IMG/VR virus record: IMGVR_UViG_3300014039_000311
Location: 1-64,000 of that record
DNA length: 64,000 bases
Origin: a virus
Taxonomy: Duplodnaviria; Caudoviricetes
Direction: 5' to 3' (one strand)
In this document: in pieces, positions 1,743 through 11,590 of the stretch
Numbering within the stretch: position 1 is the stretch's first letter
Layout of the letters: every line of letters starts with the position of its first letter
Position numbers and translations under genes: made by a program
Notes under the pieces: model-generated
Seen by the model: only the letters and a program-made list of their open reading frames with translations
Database searches by the model: none
What the model was told of the DNA's origin: nothing

Positions 1743-4286
1743 ATGGCAAATAACATTACAAAAGAGGATATCGATAAATTCCTCTCAGGTACAGACCCGA
1801 TGGAACATATTATAAAGATAGAAGGGTCTTATGACGATGATAAAATGACTGTCATCTTTCGGGGAAAAAATAATAAGTTGAAAATGTTAAAGGATAATTT
1901 TTATCCTTTTGTATGGTGCAAACAAAGTGCAGCCCGAAAGCTTTTCGATGGCGACAGAAAGATTCTGAGGGAGAAAATGGCGATGTACGGTATTACTTGT
2001 AAAGGATTACGTGTCGCCGACGATGAGGGAAACATCCACCCAAGAATGGAGAATGGATATAGGGTATTGTTCTATGCGAAATTTGCGATGTCCTATAAGA
2101 AATTCATGGACTTTTTCAAGGAAGCTGGTAGACCAATATATCCGCAACAGACCGATGCTAATTACGGACTTCGTGAATTTATTGCGGTAGCACCTACAGA
2201 GCAATATATGATTTATACAGGTCGACGAATGTTTAAGGGATATGATGATTACGATGACCTTATTCGTATGTCATTCGACTTGGAGACCGAGGGTCTTAAT
2301 CCACAGATACATGCGATTTCACAGATTGGTATACGAACAAACAAGGGATTTGAAAAAATCATTACCATTGATGGCGAAGGTGAAGAAAAGTTCAAAAATG
2401 AGATAATCGGTCTCAAGGAATTTTTTGAAATCATATATAATGAACAACCTGATATTATTGCAGGATATAATACTGAGAACTTCGACTGGTATTTTATTGA
2501 TGAACGATTAAAGCTCCACGGAAGCTCGTTGTTGGATTTCACCAAGAAAATTTTCTATAATCGTGGGATATATAAGAAAAAGAAACAACAAGTATTGAAA
2601 CTTGGTGGCGAAATGGAGTATTATTATCCTACTATAATGTGGGGTCATAATATCGTTGATGCATTGTTCGCCGTTCGTAGAGCGCAAGCAATCGATTCTA
2701 ATATGAAAAAGGCAACCCTTAAATATATCTGCGCCTACTCAAAGATGAATAAGCCTAATCGTGTATATGTACCAGGCAAAGAAATTAATACAACGTGGTT
2801 GGACTTGACACCTACATATGCATTTAATGATACCGATGGCGAATGGTTTAAGATAGATGATAAACGTCTTGAAAAGACTTATACTGATGATAATGGAACG
2901 TTTCCTCTGTACACCCGTGAAGATAAAAAATTAATTAATAATAAAACAGGTAAGGAGTATGAAATAACGACAGGACGCTATATAATTCAGCGTTATCTGT
3001 TGGATGACCTTTGGGAGACAGATAAGGTAGAAAACCGTTATAATCAACCTAATTTCTTGGTAGGTAAAATGCTCCCAGTATCATATGAGAAAATGTGTAC
3101 AATGGGTACTGCTGCAATATGGAAATACATTATGATGGCGTGGAGTTATCAACATGATCTGGCTATTCCTGAATTGATTGAAACCAAGAAATTTACAGGA
3201 GGATTGTCACGATTATTGAAAGTCGGATATGTGGATAGAATCGTTAAATTGGATTATAATTCACTATATCCTTCGATTATTCTTACTTTCGGTATCAAGA
3301 GTCCAATCGATATTATGGGTGTAATGAATGCCCTTTTGGAGTATATTCTTACACAACGTGAACATTATAAGGGTCTGAAAGCCAAATATGGTAAAGAGGC
3401 AGATGAACTTAAAGAAAAATTAAAGGGTATTACAGATGAGAATGAAATTAAGGAGACAAAGGTCAAGATAGCGCAGTTATCAAGCCAAAAGGCGATGGCA
3501 GACAAAATGCAACTTCCTCTAAAGATAACAGGCAATGGCTTCTTCGGATCATACGGTTCTGGAAGTGTGTTCCCTTGGTCTGATTTGGAATGTGCGGAGG
3601 AAACAACTTGCCGTGGTCGACAAATGCTTCGTCTTATGATTAGCCATTTTTCCACATTGGGAAGTTTTAATACTAATACGCCTAATGACGAATACAATTA
3701 TCATCCTATTGTAGGTGACAGTTTTACTGGTGATACACCTATGTTTATCAAATATGATAATACAAATTTGATTGACATCAAACCTATATCTGAATTAATA
3801 GATATTGATAACATACGCAAGGATGCGTTAGGTAGAGAATACGATACGACTGAGAAAAATTATACTGTCTTATGTCGAAGTGGATGGTATAAACCAAGCT
3901 ACATATATCGTCACAAGACGGGCAAAGATATGTACCGTGTCATGGATAAACGAAATAGTAAGACCTGTGTCAGTGACATAACCGAAGACCATTCGTTGTT
4001 TGATGAAAATAAAGAAAAGGTAAAGCCATCCGAGATTAATAAAAACACGGTATTAGAATACAAATCAGAGCCTTTCTGTAAAAGAGATAAAAAAATAACA
4101 AAAGAGAAATTTAATAAATTATTAGACTTCACAGTAAAATTCCCAATGAAGATACCTATCGAAGTTTTAAATTGTGAAGTAAATATAAGAAAGCGATTTG
4201 CAAGTGAACTGTGCAAGAGATTAGATAAACAAATAACAATTGAAAACTATTCAAAGGTATTTGTAGCGGGATTTAACTTTTTATAA
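1743..4286 (+). CDS. polB: DNA polymerase family B, N-terminal half (3'-5' exonuclease, motifs A and B) fused to split-intein N-part
   Basis: ExoI FDLETEG, ExoII GYNTENFD, ExoIII YLLDD, motif A LDYNSLYPS, motif B KITGNGFFG; motif C is cut after IVGD (residue 659). Confidence 0.92.
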   Translation: MANNITKEDIDKFLSGTDPMEHIIKIEGSYDDDKMTVIFRGKNNKLKMLKDNFYPFVWCKQSAARKLFDGDRKILREKMAMYGITCKGLRVADDEGNIHPRMENGYRVLFYAKFAMSYKKFMDFFKEAGRPIYPQQTDANYGLREFIAVAPTEQYMIYTGRRMFKGYDDYDDLIRMSFDLETEGLNPQIHAISQIGIRTNKGFEKIITIDGEGEEKFKNEIIGLKEFFEIIYNEQPDIIAGYNTENFDWYFIDERLKLHGSSLLDFTKKIFYNRGIYKKKKQQVLKLGGEMEYYYPTIMWGHNIVDALFAVRRAQAIDSNMKKATLKYICAYSKMNKPNRVYVPGKEINTTWLDLTPTYAFNDTDGEWFKIDDKRLEKTYTDDNGTFPLYTREDKKLINNKTGKEYEITTGRYIIQRYLLDDLWETDKVENRYNQPNFLVGKMLPVSYEKMCTMGTAAIWKYIMMAWSYQHDLAIPELIETKKFTGGLSRLLKVGYVDRIVKLDYNSLYPSIILTFGIKSPIDIMGVMNALLEYILTQREHYKGLKAKYGKEADELKEKLKGITDENEIKETKVKIAQLSSQKAMADKMQLPLKITGNGFFGSYGSGSVFPWSDLECAEETTCRGRQMLRLMISHFSTLGSFNTNTPNDEYNYHPIVGDSFTGDTPMFIKYDNTNLIDIKPISELIDIDNIRKDALGREYDTTEKNYTVLCRSGWYKPSYIYRHKTGKDMYRVMDKRNSKTCVSDITEDHSLFDENKEKVKPSEINKNTVLEYKSEPFCKRDKKITKEKFNKLLDFTVKFPMKIPIEVLNCEVNIRKRFASELCKRLDKQITIENYSKVFVAGFNFL
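3720..4283 (+). mobile_element. Split intein N-fragment (IntN, about 188 aa) with degenerate LAGLIDADG remnant
   Basis: Begins SFTGDTPMFIK (block A), contains ITEDHSLF (block B TxxH); tail KIPIEVLN...KRF...YSKVFVAG resembles decayed endonuclease blocks; ends at a stop codon with no C-terminal Asn. Confidence 0.85.
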
Positions 4287-4297
4287 TGTAGTCATAT

Positions 4298-4337
4298 AAA
4301 TGATTCTATCAGATAATTTGTCTCGGTAGAATCATTT
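4298..4337 (+). terminator. Hairpin immediately after polB N-half
   Basis: AAATGATTCTATC...GGTAGAATCATTT inverted repeat; T-tract is weak. Confidence 0.5.
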
Positions 4338-4361
4338 GTTCTATCTTAATAAGAAATAACA

Positions 4362-5762
4362 ATGTATAAAACTGTCATTAAATCGACTGATGAATTTAAA
4401 AGTAAAGCAAGAGATATATTCGGAGATTATTACGACTATACAAAAACAGATATCTCGAAAAAAGATACTAAAAGACGAGTAACAATAACATGCCCCATAC
4501 ATGGAGATTTTCTGCAAAATATGTATAGTCACTTAAAAGGTTGCGGGTGTCCGAAATGTGGAAAACGAAATATGGCAAAAACTCAATCGTTTACAAACGA
4601 ACAATTTATTACTAAGGCAAATATTGTCCACAACTTTAAATATCGTTATACAATAACAGTATATCAAGGAGCAACTAAAGACGTTGACATTATTTGTCCA
4701 AAGCACGGGATTTTCACTCAGAAGGCATATTCACATCTACAAGGTCACGGCTGCCCTAAATGCGCTACCGAACAGAACGCTAATAATATGTTGATGACAA
4801 AAGAGGTGTTCGTCAAAAAAGCCAATATTATTCATAAAAATACCGAGGATTATAGCCTTGCGGAATACAAAGGGGCAAAGATTCCAATTGAAATAATATG
4901 TGCCAATGGTCATCATTATTGGCAAATGCCAAACAAGCATCTATGCGGTCACGGTTGTCCTTATTGTTCCAATGTTGTCTCAACTCAAGAAAATGAAATA
5001 TCAGATTTCATCGAAAATGAACTTGGTCTCGAAGTTATTAAGAATAATCGTAAAATATTGACAGATGGCAAGGAAATTGACATATATATTCCGTCTAAAA
5101 ACATCGCAATAGAACACGATGGCTTAATATGGCATAGTGAAGAATATTGTAAAAATAATCACTACCATTTGAAAAAGACAGAAGATTGTATTAAGCAAGG
5201 AATACGACTACTGCATATTTTTGAAGACGAATGGGTATTTAAGAAAGATATTGTTAAATCTAAAATAAGAGAAATAACAGACAATGTACCAAATAAGATT
5301 TCCTCTGAACTATGTGTTATTAAAAAGTTATCTCCGAAACAATGTATTGATTTTTTAAAAACAAATTCAATTTATAATATCGTTAATCCTCAAATAGTAT
5401 ATGGTAATTTTTATAAAAATGAATTGGTCTCGTTGTTAGGATTTAATAAAATAACTGATGACGAATATGAATTAGTCACATATTGCAATAGACTAAATAC
5501 AAAGGTAATAAATGGTGTAAAAGGACTTTTTAATTTTTTCGTGAATGAAAATAATCCTATCGTTGTTATAGTCAAGATTGATAGACGATGGGATAATGGA
5601 AATGAGTTTAAAAATATCGGTTTTAAGTTCTTAAAAAATACCGAACCAAATTATTATTATGTCGCTAATAGACATCGATATTTGAAGATAATCGATATAG
5701 AAAAAGAGACATATAGGATATTCGATAGTGGAAATTCTGTATACGAATGGAAGAAAAAATAG
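4362..5762 (+). CDS. Hef-like homing endonuclease (CPxHG/CPxC zinc-ribbon repeats, PD-(D/E)XK-like domain, GNAT-like C-terminus)
   Basis: Three CxxHG...GCPxC-type repeats; KEIDIYIPSKNIAIEHDGLIWHS; IFEDEW; DRRW; RIFDSG. Confidence 0.7.
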   Translation: MYKTVIKSTDEFKSKARDIFGDYYDYTKTDISKKDTKRRVTITCPIHGDFLQNMYSHLKGCGCPKCGKRNMAKTQSFTNEQFITKANIVHNFKYRYTITVYQGATKDVDIICPKHGIFTQKAYSHLQGHGCPKCATEQNANNMLMTKEVFVKKANIIHKNTEDYSLAEYKGAKIPIEIICANGHHYWQMPNKHLCGHGCPYCSNVVSTQENEISDFIENELGLEVIKNNRKILTDGKEIDIYIPSKNIAIEHDGLIWHSEEYCKNNHYHLKKTEDCIKQGIRLLHIFEDEWVFKKDIVKSKIREITDNVPNKISSELCVIKKLSPKQCIDFLKTNSIYNIVNPQIVYGNFYKNELVSLLGFNKITDDEYELVTYCNRLNTKVINGVKGLFNFFVNENNPIVVIVKIDRRWDNGNEFKNIGFKFLKNTEPNYYYVANRHRYLKIIDIEKETYRIFDSGNSVYEWKKK

Positions 5763-5813
5763 AGTTTTAACCGATTTTAGTATAATATTCTTGGCGAATA
5801 CGAAAATAAACGG

Positions 5814-5821
5814 TAACTTTG
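5814..5821 (+). promoter_or_regulatory. Bacteroidetes-type promoter upstream of the second endonuclease and polB C-half
   Basis: TAACTTTG, with a TTG about 20 nt upstream. Confidence 0.55.
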
Positions 5822-5849
5822 CCTATTATCCTTTATAAACTTTGATAAA

Positions 5850-6830
5850 ATGAGCAAAAGAAAAAGCAATAGTGATATAGAAAAAGAATGCATTGAATTA
5901 TGTAAACGTTACGGGCACAAATACATTGCGTTTACAAGGACAAAAGATAAAGACAGTCATACAAGAATAAAGGTTGTATTTGAATGTAATAAACACGGGA
6001 TTAAAGAAACACGTCTATTTACGTTGAGAAAAGGAAATGGTTGCAAGGAATGTGCCAATGAAAAACTATCGGAGTCAAAAAAGTTTTCAGATGATAAGAT
6101 AAAGGACATCTTTAATAAGACATATGATGGTAAATATGAATTTATTGACACTATAAGAGAAAAAAATAAAAGAGGTAAAATAATAACTTATATTAATTAT
6201 CTTTGTCCTTGCCACGGTTTAAAAAAGATAGAATTAGGCAACATTAATAATAGTAAATGTGGCTGTAAAGAATGTTCCGATGAAGAACAAAAGATGACCG
6301 AAGATGAAATCAAACGAAGAGGAGATGAAATATGCAATAAAATGGGTTATAAATATAAAGGATATTTCAGAGACAAGGGGTTTATTCGTATTGTATACGA
6401 ATGTCCTATCCACGGAGAGAATAATGCAAGTATATACCATTTAGAAGAAGGAAAAAGATGTCCAAAATGTTATTCAAGCAGTATCGAGGCAAGCGTAAAT
6501 AACTTATTAAAATTAAATAACATTGAGTTTGTTGAACAGAAAAAATTCGAATGGTTAAGGTACCATAATCCTCTTAGATTGGACTTTTACTTACCTAAAT
6601 ATAACATTGCAATTGAGTGTCAAGGAAAACAACATTTTAATTCTGTAAAAACTTGGGGAGGTAATGATGAATTAGAAGACCGGCAACTCAGAGACAAGAC
6701 AAAGAAAGAACTATGTGAAAATCACGGAATTAAAATAATATACTATGCCAATTATACATACGATTTTCCATATAAAGTGATAACCGATGAAACTGAATTA
6801 TTAAAGAAAATAAACGATGGAAACAAATAA
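5850..6830 (+). CDS. Zinc-ribbon repeat plus DUF559/Vsr-like endonuclease (putative homing endonuclease)
   Basis: Three CxxHG...CxxC repeats; EQKKFEWL...LDFYLPKYNIAIECQGKQHF. Confidence 0.7.
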   Translation: MSKRKSNSDIEKECIELCKRYGHKYIAFTRTKDKDSHTRIKVVFECNKHGIKETRLFTLRKGNGCKECANEKLSESKKFSDDKIKDIFNKTYDGKYEFIDTIREKNKRGKIITYINYLCPCHGLKKIELGNINNSKCGCKECSDEEQKMTEDEIKRRGDEICNKMGYKYKGYFRDKGFIRIVYECPIHGENNASIYHLEEGKRCPKCYSSSIEASVNNLLKLNNIEFVEQKKFEWLRYHNPLRLDFYLPKYNIAIECQGKQHFNSVKTWGGNDELEDRQLRDKTKKELCENHGIKIIYYANYTYDFPYKVITDETELLKKINDGNK

Positions 6831-6915
6831 TATTGGTAAGACAAATGATTATGTATACGACATTTCATTAGATGGAACTGTTGTTAATGCATTGGGAATG
6901 AACGTATTAAGTAAT
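6817..6915 (+). mobile_element. Split intein C-fragment (IntC, 33 aa)
   Basis: METNNIGKTNDYVYDISLDGTVVNALGMNVLSN|T: block F (YVYDIS), terminal Asn, +1 Thr nucleophile. Confidence 0.88.
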
Positions 6916-8472
6916 ACTGATGGGTTCAACTTCCAAAAACCGTTAAAATATCGTTATACAAAAGAGCATCCTTATATAGGTAAGGGACTCGGCCGTAATG
7001 TCAAGAAAGGAAAAGAATACACCGAGGTCGACGCCGATGTTGCTGAATTCGAGGATACATTTATTAATGAAGCATACAATGGAGGAGTATTAAAGAACGG
7101 TTTAGGAATCGATGAGTATTGTGACGCTTGTATCCAATTCGCTCGTAAAAATTACGCTGATTTAATGCCTGATGGTTCTAAGAAACTGGTAGGCAACACT
7201 ATCAAATCAAAAAAGATGCCGATATATATTGAGAAGTTTCTTAATAATGCCATTGATATGCTATTGCACGGCAAGGGTTCTGATTTTCTTAACTATTATT
7301 ATGATTATATTGAGAAAATTTATAATATGCAAATTCCTTTGAAAGATATTGCGACTGTTGGCAAAATAAAAACCTCCATCGAGACATATAAGGAAAGTTG
7401 CAAGCAGTTAACTGCTGGTGGTACAAAGAAAGCAAGACAAGCTTGGTATGAATTAGCCATACGTGATAACTTGTCAGTCAATATGGGTGACACTATCTAT
7501 TATATTAACACAGGTGACAAGAAATCGGTGTCTGATGTACAAAGAGTTACTAAGTACTATTTTGACGGAAGAGATGGGAAAGAAATCGATTACATGACCA
7601 ATGAAGATGGCACTCCTAAGACTGACCGTAAAGGAAATATTGTGTCTCTGTCAAAAGGATTGGAAAGTGAATACAACCGTCTTAAAAAAGCCAATGACCC
7701 TATTGTGTTAACTCCACCAAATTCTAAGAAAAAATACATATCAAAAGATGATTATATACACAAGGCATATCCATCAATAAAGGATAAGGATGTTATCATT
7801 TTTAATTGTGTTAGATTACCTAATGATATTGTCGAGGATGAGGACGATCACTTCTGTTCAGACGACATTGAGTATAACAAAGAGAAATATATCGATATGT
7901 TTAATAAACGTATTAAACCTCTGCTTGTGTGCTTTAACGAAAAAATTCGTTACACTGTCAATGAAAAAGGCAAGACAATAAATAACATACTAATAACTTC
8001 CCCAAAGGATAGAAAGGAATTTACGGAGAACGAAAGTCAACTCGTTGCAGGACAGCCATATGAGACAATCGACCAAGATACATATGAGCAATTGATGACC
8101 ATCGAGGATAAGGAGATAAAATTCTGGATAGAAAACAATAAAGTGCCTCCGTATACAAAGGAATGTGGAATGGATTGGGGAAAGATAAAGCAAAATTATC
8201 TTGACCGTCAGAAAGAGTTGGAGAAAGAAGGGATTCGTGAAGAAAAAGAATCTTATGATAATTGTATAGCGTCTCTTAAAAGAGAAGATGTCGATAAGGT
8301 ACTTGAAGAGGGGGTGCTTCCCGAAAAGTTGCTGAGACTGATAGATGAGAATATAAACAATGGCGATTTCGTCTCAAAGAAATACAAAGTGAAAATTGGA
8401 AGCATCTTCGATATTGTTGACAAGGATTTCACAAAGAACAACGAGGTAGAAGAAGACGAAATGGCAGAATAG
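6817..8472 (+). CDS. polB: DNA polymerase family B, C-terminal half preceded by split-intein C-part
   Basis: After IntC the sequence resumes TDG (completing GD-TDG motif C), then FARKNYA (PolB KKxY-like motif) and thumb-type GDTIYY. Confidence 0.88.
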   Translation: METNNIGKTNDYVYDISLDGTVVNALGMNVLSNTDGFNFQKPLKYRYTKEHPYIGKGLGRNVKKGKEYTEVDADVAEFEDTFINEAYNGGVLKNGLGIDEYCDACIQFARKNYADLMPDGSKKLVGNTIKSKKMPIYIEKFLNNAIDMLLHGKGSDFLNYYYDYIEKIYNMQIPLKDIATVGKIKTSIETYKESCKQLTAGGTKKARQAWYELAIRDNLSVNMGDTIYYINTGDKKSVSDVQRVTKYYFDGRDGKEIDYMTNEDGTPKTDRKGNIVSLSKGLESEYNRLKKANDPIVLTPPNSKKKYISKDDYIHKAYPSIKDKDVIIFNCVRLPNDIVEDEDDHFCSDDIEYNKEKYIDMFNKRIKPLLVCFNEKIRYTVNEKGKTINNILITSPKDRKEFTENESQLVAGQPYETIDQDTYEQLMTIEDKEIKFWIENNKVPPYTKECGMDWGKIKQNYLDRQKELEKEGIREEKESYDNCIASLKREDVDKVLEEGVLPEKLLRLIDENINNGDFVSKKYKVKIGSIFDIVDKDFTKNNEVEEDEMAE

Positions 8473-8483
8473 ACAAGAAAAAC

Positions 8484-8520
8484 AGAACCCCGTACGGGAA
8501 AACATCCTGTACGAGGTTCT
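8484..8520. terminator. Terminator between convergent polB-C and tail-fibre operon
   Basis: AGAACCCCGTACGGGA...TCCTGTACGAGGTTCT inverted repeat, T-rich on the minus side. Confidence 0.7.
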
Positions 8521-8559
8521 TAGCAACTATGTCCGTTTTGTTTTTGTTGTTGTTTTCAA

Positions 8560-10068
8560 TTAATATGTTCCGCAGTCCCAAACATTAGACATTGTGATGC
8601 CTCCGCTTTCAATGGTGAACAAGTCATTTGCGTTTCCTTCTTTGGCAGCGGCGAACTGTACCTTTATGGTAGTCTTGTTTGTGGCAGAGTTATCGACTAC
8701 GACACTTTCGTCAGCAGCCTCGACGTGGTTCTTGGCAATAGCGTCAGAGTTCTTCTTAACCTGTGCGTCAAGTGCGGCAATCTCACCAACGACAGTCGTA
8801 GCCTGATTTGTGTAATTGCCCTTTGTTGTAACGTGGTCGCCATTTTCAGCCAAGCCTACGCTTGCCTCGACTGTGTTAACTGATGCGGTAAGTTCTCCCT
8901 CGACACCCTTGGCACGTTCTGTCTCAGCATCTATTGCATCATCGACACCACTTACTTTAAGACCGTCTGCACTTACAGTCAAGTAATTCTCGCTTTTGGC
9001 ATCAATCTTGGCAGTAACCTTGTGATCGACCAATTCTATACCATCACCCATTTCTTTTTCTTGGATAAGGTCAGACATGCTAACTTCCACTACACTGTCA
9101 GTGCCATCTGCAAGTGTGTATGTGAAAGTAAGTATCTGATTTTCATATTTAACACTCTTCAGAGTCTGGTCTTTGTTTATCTTGACAAGTGCGCCCTTTG
9201 CTGTAGTACCATCTTTACCAACCAATTTATATGCAGTCTTGACGTTTGTCTCACCTAGGGCTTTAAGTTCGTCGGCAGTAAGCTCAACGAGTTTTATAGA
9301 CGATTTTATGCCTTTATCAGACTGTGACAGTACATCGTCATTATCGATCGCGAGTGAGATTGTCTTTGTATTGGTTTCCTTGTTAACGTCCGAGACCTTA
9401 ACTGACTCTGCGCCGACATATTGTACTATCGCTTCGCTTGCTACGCTTAGCTTACCCGAGTTTTCGTTGCGTACGATGGTAGTGCCGTCGATGTTCACAC
9501 TTACGTCAACTCCGTTATTGGTATTCAGAGTTACTGACTTGTCATTTGAAGTAATGGACTTACGGCTGACGGTAATAACTCCGTCGGTCTCGCTGACTGA
9601 ATCAACGAACTGACCCTTTACGGCAACATCCTCCTTGTCTAATGCTTCTATCGCAGTTTTTCTTGCGGCTTTCTCGTCCTCGATGGCTTTTTTGACTGTA
9701 TTAGTCTCGTCGAAGCCTGTACCGATTTGGCTTTGTAAGTCTTGCAGTTTGTCTGTTACGTGGTCGGCTGATGAATTAGCGTCAGAAACTTTACGCCAAT
9801 TAGATTCTTTTTGTGCTTCAGTGGTGAGAATACCATTTCCTTTTGAATAAGGGCCTACATACATGTATTCGGCTTTTTCTGTCTCAACATACACATGCAG
9901 TCCAAGTGCAATAAGGCAATAATCTCCGACAGTACCGAATGTATCAGCACAGTTCTTAACCATGTCATCTTTGGTCTCAACTACTTGTCTTGGATCGACA
10001 GGGTCACAAGAACCGGCTTTAAAAGGAGCCGGGAGAGCAATAGGATTTGTAAATTTTATACTAGCCAT
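8560..10068 (-). CDS. Tail fibre-like structural protein
   Basis: 502 aa with beta-repeat and coiled-coil segments (ENYLTVSADGLKVSG also similar to a segment of the 1498-aa ORF); C-terminal WDCGTY. Confidence 0.55.
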   Translation of the reverse strand: MASIKFTNPIALPAPFKAGSCDPVDPRQVVETKDDMVKNCADTFGTVGDYCLIALGLHVYVETEKAEYMYVGPYSKGNGILTTEAQKESNWRKVSDANSSADHVTDKLQDLQSQIGTGFDETNTVKKAIEDEKAARKTAIEALDKEDVAVKGQFVDSVSETDGVITVSRKSITSNDKSVTLNTNNGVDVSVNIDGTTIVRNENSGKLSVASEAIVQYVGAESVKVSDVNKETNTKTISLAIDNDDVLSQSDKGIKSSIKLVELTADELKALGETNVKTAYKLVGKDGTTAKGALVKINKDQTLKSVKYENQILTFTYTLADGTDSVVEVSMSDLIQEKEMGDGIELVDHKVTAKIDAKSENYLTVSADGLKVSGVDDAIDAETERAKGVEGELTASVNTVEASVGLAENGDHVTTKGNYTNQATTVVGEIAALDAQVKKNSDAIAKNHVEAADESVVVDNSATNKTTIKVQFAAAKEGNANDLFTIESGGITMSNVWDCGTY

Positions 10069-10099
10069 GCTATAAATTTCTTTCGTTTAAATTGTTTAT

Positions 10100-11590
10100 T
10101 TAGAATGTAACTACCTGATATCTCTTTGAATCAGCAGCTCCGCCGACCCATTTATATTGGAAATATTTATACTGTTTGTCACCGAAAGTCTTGTTTATCT
10201 CGACCGGTGAGGACAGACTACTTTTAACGTTAACGTCAAACTTGCCTGAAACTTCATTGTATGCGTAGAAAGTGTTTATCTTTCTTGGAGTCTCAATTAC
10301 GAGCGGCGCAGAGGCTGTAGTCGCAGGCCATTTTGCAGAAGGTGCGAATGTCATTGCCCCCCAAGCGATAAGACCCTGCTTTGAGGTATTGGTAGTAGTG
10401 TTAGTCGTAGCGAATATAGGCAGCGTGGCGTTCAAAGTGACTATGCCACTTGTAACGTTTCCGGCCGCATGAGGATTGGCAACATTACCCTTATTGGTTG
10501 TTGGCATTGGATTAGGTGTTGCGCCCTTTGATGTCCTCATTACAGAACCTTGCACGTAGTCAATAGTAACCCTATATGTATATTTACCGAGACCGAACTT
10601 TTCATCGAATTCCGTTACGTCATTTTTTGCGCTACCGTCAGAGGTTGTACCGGCATTGGCGTTAGCCGCATAAGGCACATATGTCATTTTGACTGTCGTT
10701 GCTGACGCATTTCCCACGTAGTCGGTAGTTGCGGTTACTCCGTCTTTCACCTCTACCTTACCCTTATAAAGTGACGTTGTGAAATTGTCTGCCACTTTTG
10801 GTGCAGTTGCACCAACTTCAACCAAACCGTTGTTATTGAATCCTTTGAACGATATGCTTGCTGATGGGTCGGTAACAGTCGGGTAGATAGTCTTGAAAAT
10901 GATGCTGTCAAGGATTTCAGACAATGGTTTACCTTTCAGTTCACTTGCCTTTGTACCCTGTGTGATGTCACCCATTGTCGCAGGAACTTTCAAGTCCATA
11001 GGCGAGAGGGGCGTATATGTGAGTTGGAAGTCATCGACTTTCTCGTCAGTACCATCTTCATTGGTGTGGAGTACGTTATATACGTCAGCTTGAGCACTTG
11101 TGTAGTTAGCGTCCTGCAATTCTTGACTAACCTTATTAGCATATTTCTTTATCTCAACGTTAGACTGAAGTTTCTCAATTGCATCAGACAACTTACTGTC
11201 GGCATCTTTTAGTGATGTCGAGGTCTTTAGTATATTGTCAGCGGCATCAGCTTTATAGCTTCCGTTGTCTTCAAGACCTGCACCTTGCTCTATGGAATTG
11301 ACTTCAGTCGTCAGATTGTCAAGAGAGGCTTTGATGACATCAGGAATTGTTTCGCCGTTATTAATGCCTTCGAAATATGTAACGATAGCATCCTTGCCAC
11401 CTACTTTAGTTACAACACCGATAATTGCCTTAACGGTATCTCCTTTAGTATAACGGCAAGCTATGAGTTCACCGTCACGTTTGGCTTCCTTCATACCTTC
11501 TATCTTTGCGATAGCAGCTGCACGGTCGGCAACCATTTCGGTATTTCTTAAAATTTGTAGAATTTTTTTGTTAAAATCTGATATACCCAT
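10100..11590 (-). CDS. Tail fibre-like/virion structural protein
   Basis: 496 aa, Thr-rich beta C-terminal part; N-terminal LQILR...DGEL motif shared with the adjacent gene. Confidence 0.5.
   Translation of the reverse strand: MGISDFNKKILQILRNTEMVADRAAAIAKIEGMKEAKRDGELIACRYTKGDTVKAIIGVVTKVGGKDAIVTYFEGINNGETIPDVIKASLDNLTTEVNSIEQGAGLEDNGSYKADAADNILKTSTSLKDADSKLSDAIEKLQSNVEIKKYANKVSQELQDANYTSAQADVYNVLHTNEDGTDEKVDDFQLTYTPLSPMDLKVPATMGDITQGTKASELKGKPLSEILDSIIFKTIYPTVTDPSASISFKGFNNNGLVEVGATAPKVADNFTTSLYKGKVEVKDGVTATTDYVGNASATTVKMTYVPYAANANAGTTSDGSAKNDVTEFDEKFGLGKYTYRVTIDYVQGSVMRTSKGATPNPMPTTNKGNVANPHAAGNVTSGIVTLNATLPIFATTNTTTNTSKQGLIAWGAMTFAPSAKWPATTASAPLVIETPRKINTFYAYNEVSGKFDVNVKSSLSSPVEINKTFGDKQYKYFQYKWVGGAADSKRYQVVTF

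Follow-up and report, generated by a model that had tools for sequence, protein, structure and literature searches.

The first 64 kb of a 92.7-kb virus record (IMG/VR IMGVR_UViG_3300014039_000311, positions 1 to 64,000; hereafter the window) encode a family B DNA polymerase (PolB) in two separate open reading frames (ORFs), with two genes for homing endonucleases (HEGs) lying between them. We propose, with a probability of about 85%, that this polB is a fractured gene carrying a naturally split class 1 intein with Ser1/Thr+1 nucleophiles at the pol-c site, and that the two halves trans-splice into a full-length polymerase. The arrangement is probably functional. An initial annotation of this DNA, drawn from its letters alone, had already read motif C as the site of a naturally split intein and the genes in the gap as free-standing endonucleases, an arrangement in which polymerase activity would depend on trans-splicing; comparative, profile and fold evidence now backs that proposal. 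The window has a GC content of ~33%, and the CheckV completeness of the record is ~25%. The relatives of the polymerase reside on contigs of 216–392 kb, and the window phage is therefore a jumbo phage.

The locus comprises four ORFs, all on the plus strand, with the following features:

1743-4286, plus strand: ORF1, 847 aa, PolB N-extein followed by the N-terminal intein half (IntN)
1743..3719, plus strand: PolB N-extein, 659 aa, exonuclease domain and polymerase motifs A/B, ending in IVGD (first half of motif C)
3720..4058, plus strand: splicing lobe of IntN, residues 1-113, with Ser1, NX motif R64-H65 and block B T88-E-D-H91
4059..4286, plus strand: tail of IntN, residues 114-188 and TAA stop, a folded helical remnant of a LAGLIDADG second half
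4296..4338, plus strand: strong RNA hairpin in the spacer that separates the IntN stop from HEG1; the 5′ arm begins in a TATAAAT-like sequence, and a U-rich run comes after the hairpin
4362-5762, plus strand: HEG1, ORF of 466 aa, predicted free-standing homing endonuclease with three zinc-ribbon modules of the DUF723/DUF4379 kind, then a Vsr-like nuclease core (IDIY...IEHDG..WH) and one more domain at the C-terminus
5850-6830, plus strand: HEG2, ORF of 326 aa, predicted free-standing Vsr-like (EDxHD-type) homing endonuclease, 14-nt 3′ overlap with the next ORF
6817-8472, plus strand: ORF of 551 aa, C-terminal intein half (IntC) followed by the PolB C-extein
6817..6915, plus strand: IntC, 33 aa, block F VYDIS, block G LSN, terminal Asn33
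6916..8472, plus strand: PolB C-extein, 518 aa and stop, beginning with Thr+1 of TDGFNF (second half of motif C)

The anatomy proposed initially, in which PolB-N ends in IVGD and runs into an IntN at 3720-4283 (SFTGDTP, TEDH) while a separate later ORF opens with a 33-aa IntC (YVYDIS...VLSN, then TDG), was recovered at these positions. Within ORF1 the PolB exonuclease and polymerase domains are confined to residues 1-659, as seen with both Pfam (DNA_pol_B_exo1, 4.5e-12; DNA_pol_B, 4.1e-11, residues 484-659) and PHROG (phrog_262 DNA polymerase, 2.9e-71). The final residues of the N-extein are PIVGD, residue 659 ending at nt 3719.

To read the splice junction, viral contigs were scanned with the C-extein, which yielded 80 loci (33-89% identity), and six parts of the window were mapped onto them by tblastn. 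The counts of junction states cover the 66 relatives in which both exteins are represented. Forty-three of these are intein-less: their two extein matches meet without any gap, in the sequence P[ILV]VGD|TDGFNF, which fixes the splice junction to the residue. Comparison with intein-less alleles, recommended in the initial annotation, thus bore out its claim that joining the exteins restores motif C as VGD-TDG. A further seven relatives carry a contiguous intein, a 355-358 aa insert in a single long ORF located exactly at VGD|TDG, and the remaining 16 show the split form. An assembly artefact is ruled out by the recurrence of the split arrangement on 16 independent metagenomic contigs. The insertion between the Asp and the Thr of motif C (YxD|TDx, here VGD|TDG) is that of the classical pol-c allele, so that motif C was rightly named as a known PolB intein site; it is occupied as YGD|TDS in Mimivirus and as YxD|TDG in archaea, and it is also the point of the natural split in the Nanoarchaeum PolB (PMC549080).

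Analysis of the two intein halves revealed the residues expected of a class 1 intein. Ser1, directly after VGD, is invariant in the 14 split and 7 contiguous alleles, and R64-H65 and T88-E-D-H91 are likewise invariant in the 14 split IntN homologues. Block B (T-x-x-H) aligns with block B of the PI-PkoII, Aes123 and TFIIB inteins, and in the profile alignment R64-H65 falls on the K-H of Aes123. An NX histidine preceded by a basic residue (Arg/Lys) is the signature of Ser1/Ser+1(Thr+1) inteins (PMC10189870), and R64-H65 of IntN places the window intein in this cysteine-independent subgroup. On the other side of the gap, IntC contains YVYDISLDG and ends in NVLSN. Its residues V13-D19, N24 and N29 do not vary, 11 of the 12 split homologues have S32/N33, and the block F Asp (D15), the terminal Asn33 and the Thr+1 of the C-extein are all in place. 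Both the contiguous allelic inteins and PI-PkoII align with IntC through their C-terminal blocks. This conservation of catalytic residues spans lineages whose exteins are only 45-94% identical. The Ser1/Thr+1 pair, initially listed as unusual, is what pol-c-type and other cysteine-less PolB inteins normally have, among them PI-TkoII, Neq Pol, Aes123 and PolB16 (PMC10189870, PMC549080).

The contiguous inteins of the relatives connect the split halves to known inteins. They start with SVT.DTP and mostly end in (A/C)HN before TDGFNF, and their blocks line up one after another with those of PI-PkoII, the pol-c intein of Thermococcus PolB. Pfam detects LAGLIDADG_3 (1.8e-14) and Hom_end in them, and in relative L006 also Intein_splicing (1.1e-5; 25.7 bits, below the curated cut-off of 35.8 bits). 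The profile of the split IntN (14 sequences) matched that of the contiguous inteins (7 sequences) with an hhalign probability of 99.9 and an E-value of 3.9e-32.

An AlphaFold2 (AF2) model of IntN was obtained with a mean predicted local distance difference test (pLDDT) score of 81.6. The Hint fold was recognised on this model, that is, on the N lobe alone. The top 16 VIA-align matches were all inteins (Z 7.9 to 4.3), the next row dropping to Z 2.6; they include PI-PkoII (Z 7.9 over 179 residues), Tli VMA (7.2), NeqN (6.4), PolB16 (5.2) and Aes123 (4.4). Inteins also rank top in Foldseek.

We infer that the two PolB halves would be translated separately and that IntN (188 aa) and IntC (33 aa) would come together as a single folded Hint domain. 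The reaction would begin with an N-O acyl shift at Ser1 and continue with transesterification to Thr+1, cyclisation of Asn33 and an O-N shift, and splicing would release a full-length polymerase with an intact motif C.

Several observations weigh against this scheme. IntN and IntC taken by themselves have no Pfam Hint/Intein match, the sequence comparison of the IntN profile with solved inteins is weak (best E 0.0064), the Foldseek E-values are weak (1.4e-2), and VIA Z-scores below 8 are middling by the tool's own description. The penultimate residue of IntC is a Ser, not a His. In relative L036, IntC (L036:9902-10000) ends in LKQ rather than LSN, both the Ser and the terminal Asn being gone, and splicing may therefore not be obligatory in every relative. 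Finally, the record is only ~25% complete, leaving room for a second polymerase.

The residues at the end of IntC could also be read as those of intein halves that no longer splice and act as a non-covalent clasp holding two polymerase pieces together, in the manner of HEG-split genes whose products assemble through interaction domains. No split lineage retains the penultimate His (SN instead), L036 has kept its ORFs intact with the KQ end, and a precedent exists in the Aeh1 NrdA, which is split and assembled without splicing (PMC3045599). However, a clasp has no need of the chemistry residues, which are invariant in 14 IntN and in 11 of 12 IntC (S1, R64-H65, T88, H91, block F Asp, N33, T+1), and it would leave motif C broken between the D and T of the catalytic site. 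Splicing without a penultimate His is moreover documented, notably for the split DnaE intein, according to references given in PMC4031507, and the Ser before the terminal Asn is on this account less unusual than first claimed. We consider the clasp improbable. As a separate observation, the LKQ end of L036 could represent either a Gln-cyclising variant or a non-splicing clasp.

Selection was assessed on both exteins and both intein halves. The synonymous rate dS is saturated between the window and its nearest relatives; hence the proportions of nonsynonymous and synonymous differences (pN/pS) and two closer pairs were used. Against the nearest relatives, pN/pS amounts to ~0.14-0.18 for IntN and IntC and to ~0.06-0.09 for the exteins (~0.06 for the N-extein against the nearest relative), and the dN/dS of IntN is 0.15-0.16 in the two unsaturated pairs. 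Both intein halves are under purifying selection.

These values bear on the idea that polB is a decaying pseudogene disrupted by selfish elements, with replication carried out by another polymerase. Given the low completeness of the record, other polymerases could lie off-contig, and in relative L021 the reading frame shifts where IntC meets the extein. The exteins are nevertheless under strong purifying selection (pN 0.04-0.07 versus pS 0.65-0.8), the window and at least 14 independent split loci have all their ORFs intact, and neither PolA nor DnaE was found on the 92.7-kb record, ~25% complete as it is. Decay of the gene thus appears very unlikely. The frameshift in L021 (L021:9924-10001) lies in a locus that is otherwise intact, and may be a sequencing error or the beginning of decay.

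The gap might instead be a group I or II intron carrying endonuclease ORFs and removed at the RNA level, the intein-like ends being coincidental. Group I introns are known to harbour Vsr-like HEGs (PMC2677866, PMC3239194), and a group I intron is present in the polB of relative L033 (RF00028, 70.6 bits). Yet both flanks of the gap code in frame for intein homologues and evolve under purifying selection, and in relative L019 the two ORFs are just 25 nt apart. Rfam models gave no intron at the gathering threshold anywhere in the window, and relaxing the limit to E 5 brought up nothing in 3500-7100 either. The same search detected the L033 intron (L033:10221-10525; E 7e-18), and it therefore works in this clade. 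We regard removal at the RNA level as having almost no likelihood. The L033 intron itself lies in the C-extein, ~75-85 codons past the intein site, and L035 and L036 have one at the equivalent place; the polB of these three relatives carries a split intein and an ORF-less group I intron together.

Both genes in the gap are assigned, from sequence and from the HEG2 model, to the Vsr-like (EDxHD) homing endonuclease family, and their nuclease activity is predicted. The AF2 model of HEG2 (pLDDT 89.7) has a nuclease domain at residues 209-326 that superposes on Vsr (1cw0: Z 11.0, root-mean-square deviation (rmsd) 3.1, 105 aa) and on the catalytic domain of I-Bth0305I (3r3p: Z 10.5, rmsd 2.9, 92/97 aa). 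In 37 homologues the residues E213, D245, E256, Q258, H262, D282 and K285 are invariant; E213, D245, H262 and D282 supply the E, D, H and D that define the EDxHD type. More than 635 homologues of HEG2 were found, mostly on big phage contigs. For HEG1, Pfam reports DUF723 (9.7e-10), DUF4379 (2e-8) and, below threshold, MTES_1575 (0.0029), and PHROG reports phrog_559 (1.8e-87) and phrog_3339, homing endonuclease (7.9e-57). Its orthologue in L002/L003 occupies the identical position with 76% identity and a pN/pS of ~0.19.

The initial annotation described two tandem endonucleases of different architecture. There are indeed two tandem genes, but they are distant paralogues of one family (BLASTP E 3e-10) that share three zinc-ribbon modules and the Vsr-like nuclease, the HEG1 core being linked to that of HEG2 by BLASTP; HEG1 adds a C-terminal domain of ~165 aa. 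This domain (residues ~300-466) belongs to no Pfam family and is covered by phrog_559 alone. The N-terminal DNA-binding part is not of NUMOD type and consists of three DUF723/DUF4379 treble-clef zinc-ribbon repeats. Searches of the HEGs against PDB sequences with phmmer and profiles returned nothing meaningful.

The hairpin at 4296..4338 has a minimum free energy of -20.7 kcal/mol (z -4.16), and 0/200 shuffles fold as well. L001/L002 have a hairpin at the equivalent place with a different stem sequence; the pairing has therefore been kept by changes on both arms. By analogy with the fractured genes described by Dassa et al. (2009), it may serve as a terminator or in translational control. No significant hairpin was detected upstream of HEG2.

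The length of IntN (188 aa; 175-192 aa in relatives), initially considered unusual, is explained by its tail. This is a confident helical unit (pLDDT 83-97). In the hhalign comparison it falls where the second LAGLIDADG half of the contiguous inteins begins (columns ~225-290), in the Pfam Hom_end region adjoining LAGLIDADG_3. VIA aligns the IntN model from residue 1 to 188 onto the splicing and endonuclease domains of the PI-PkoII and Tli VMA inteins, and for this reason we interpret the tail, which has no acidic catalytic motif, as a nuclease-dead LAGLIDADG remnant. It is still constrained (pN/pS ~0.15-0.18). A tentative extension, to which we give a distinctly minor chance, is that the intein split through a break within its own LAGLIDADG domain, that this folded 75-aa remnant has been kept by selection for a new role and that the cassette of IntN tail, HEGs and IntC still moves between polB alleles as one unit. 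The remnant might confer solubility on an aggregation-prone IntN, guide assembly, or act as a DNA-binding helper for the Vsr-like nucleases. If this were true, the clade would be a living series of every gene-breaking stage and would provide more than 12 natural variants of a split intein that does without cysteine and brings its own solubility domain.

The distribution of intein states is patchy, requiring at least 11 changes on the extein tree. In the split allele the gap is shortest in L019, with its 25 nt, and measures 164 nt in L004. One endonuclease gene occupies it in L005, L007, L009, L017, L033, L036 and others, two in the window, L002/3, L012 and L027, and more than two in L018, where the gap reaches 6.3 kb. 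Even the closest relatives differ in content: the window has HEG1 and HEG2, L002 has HEG1 and a 622-aa HEG, and L001 has a remnant and the 622-aa HEG. Of the 633-aa HEG of L005 (L005:7984-9885), the 164-nt spacer of L004 (L004:9738-9901) retains ~35 nt from the beginning and ~100 nt from the end, making it an internal-deletion derivative of the HEG in this near-identical (99%) relative.

Two further pairs bear on mobility. L006 (contiguous) and L009 (split) share 91-99% identical extein DNA. L062 (contiguous) and L063 (empty) are 95-99% identical, but identity falls to 75-80% within 150 nt of the site on both sides, which looks like a co-conversion or resistance tract. In the tree of splicing blocks all split inteins fall on one side of a branch with a Shimodaira-Hasegawa-like approximate likelihood ratio test (SH-aLRT) value of 99, and these sequences are therefore compatible with a single splitting event followed by spread or loss. 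The order of events that we favour would start from a contiguous LAGLIDADG intein of the same allele whose own nuclease domain decayed. The coding region would then have been broken by invading free-standing Vsr-like (EDxHD) HEGs, which left the 75-aa folded remnant on IntN. The two HEGs in the gap would give, or have given, mobility, and would turn over quickly.

Fractured genes with split inteins flanking a free-standing endonuclease were, as the initial annotation stated, already known (Dassa 2009, PMC2677866; Aes123 PolB1, PMC11923092; MIJ3/PA5oct, PMC6892783). Dassa, London, Stoddard, Schueler-Furman and Pietrokovski described gp41-1, NrdJ-1, IMPDH-1, DnaE and others (PMC2677866), and the Vsr-like/EDxHD homing endonuclease family was first found in fractured genes (PMC2677866, PMC3239194). 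The window shares with them the phage context and a replication gene in two adjacent ORFs, each with a split-intein half, with a free-standing, often Vsr-like HEG between them; the 3′ end of the HEG overlapping the IntC ORF (6-69 bp in theirs, 14 nt here); the hairpin in the 5′ untranslated region of the HEG; and the occurrence of alleles that have lost the HEG. It differs in its host, PolB at the pol-c site, which is outside their eight enzyme types, and in its Ser1/Thr+1 nucleophiles, where theirs are Cys. Their IntN measures 88-105 aa and is split at the endonuclease insertion point, whereas the 188-aa IntN of the window carries the LAGLIDADG remnant and is broken inside the former endonuclease domain. 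The window also has two tandem HEGs with three DUF723 zinc-ribbon modules in place of their NUMODs.

With the pol-c alleles of Nanoarchaeum equitans (Neq Pol, PDB 5OXZ), PI-PkoII/Tko Pol-2 and the Mimivirus PolB intein, the window has in common the motif C site YxD|TDx and Ser1/Thr+1. The PI-PkoII and Mimivirus inteins are contiguous, unlike that of the window. The Neq Pol intein is likewise naturally split, at the endonuclease position, but its halves lie at unlinked loci of a hyperthermophilic archaeon, with an IntN of ~98 aa and no HEG.

The Aes123 PolB1 intein of T4-like Aeromonas phages (PDB 9HTH; CL/CLm), for which trans-splicing was shown experimentally, is also naturally split and cysteine-independent, lies in the motif C region of a phage PolB and has the basic residue-His pair of NX (PMC11923092, PMC12707363). 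Its insertion is nevertheless two residues downstream (DTD|SVY, Ser+1), with an IntN of 120 aa and an IntC of 39 aa; the similarity is marginal (profile E 0.0064, Z 4.4), and the window site, GD|TDG, is not of the Aes123 type. Other naturally split cysteine-independent phage PolB inteins, likewise assayed, are CP21 PolB1 and LCGC14 PolB2 (PMC11923092, PMC12707363), and GOM-OPS-1. In the Pseudomonas jumbo phages MIJ3/PA5oct (PMC6892783), PolB is similarly encoded in two ORFs with a split intein and a HEG between them, with block B TEDHS and block F VYDI. These phages differ in a single HNH-type HEG and in block G VHN|S, with the penultimate His kept and Ser+1, and no LAGLIDADG remnant is reported for them. 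As for the nucleases, HEG2 and I-Bth0305I of the EDxHD family (PMC3239194; PDB 3R3P) superpose at Z 10.5 and have the same D-to-H spacing of 17. HEG2 differs in the three treble-clef zinc-ribbon repeats of its N-terminus, which replace NUMOD/HTH elements, and in being free-standing in an intein gap, not in an intron.

The window locus thus belongs to the published class of fractured genes, and its unusual character was mostly overstated, most of the features singled out being ordinary for such inteins. What is particular to it is a pol-c split allele in a phage, a constrained LAGLIDADG remnant on IntN, tandem Vsr-like HEGs and a clade in which all the gene-breaking stages are on view. Five states are present at one site in one phage clade (intein-less, contiguous LAGLIDADG-intein, and split alleles with a HEG, with several HEGs or with a deleted one), and this series bears directly on the model in which free-standing nucleases break inteins and genes.

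Naturally split inteins that are independent of cysteine are scarce and wanted tools; according to papers from the Mootz laboratory, few have been characterised, and all of them required engineering against IntN aggregation. It is reasonable to regard the window intein as a new cysteine-independent, possibly orthogonal candidate for protein engineering. Its lineage supplies natural IntN/IntC pairs for the pol-c site, at least 14 of them and diverged from one another, plus an extra folded domain on IntN, and the highly conserved 33-aa IntC is within reach of chemical synthesis.

A few further observations concern the exteins and the ORF arrangement. The C-extein weakly matches the DNA polymerase of a Salinibacter phage, and DNA and protein searches of the GenBank phage collection gave no close match, only remote Salinibacter phage polymerases. 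A 132-aa in-frame insert in the N-extein of L019 (L019:6240-6635, query residues 372-387) was considered as a second intein and rejected, being acidic, of low complexity and devoid of intein blocks. Joining of the ORFs by stop-codon recoding or read-through was ruled out by several in-frame TAA codons in the ORF1/ORF2 spacer. The ORFs starting at 1743, 4362 and 5850 have one common reading frame with several TAA between them, seemingly a coincidence. In L020, polB is broken ~20 codons before motif C (L020:8539-8691) into ORFs at 6566-8569 and 8622-10211, with no intein sequence; the second ORF begins MAKILEDTPIF...VVGDTDG, and the break may be an intein-less fracture or a small unrecognised insert.

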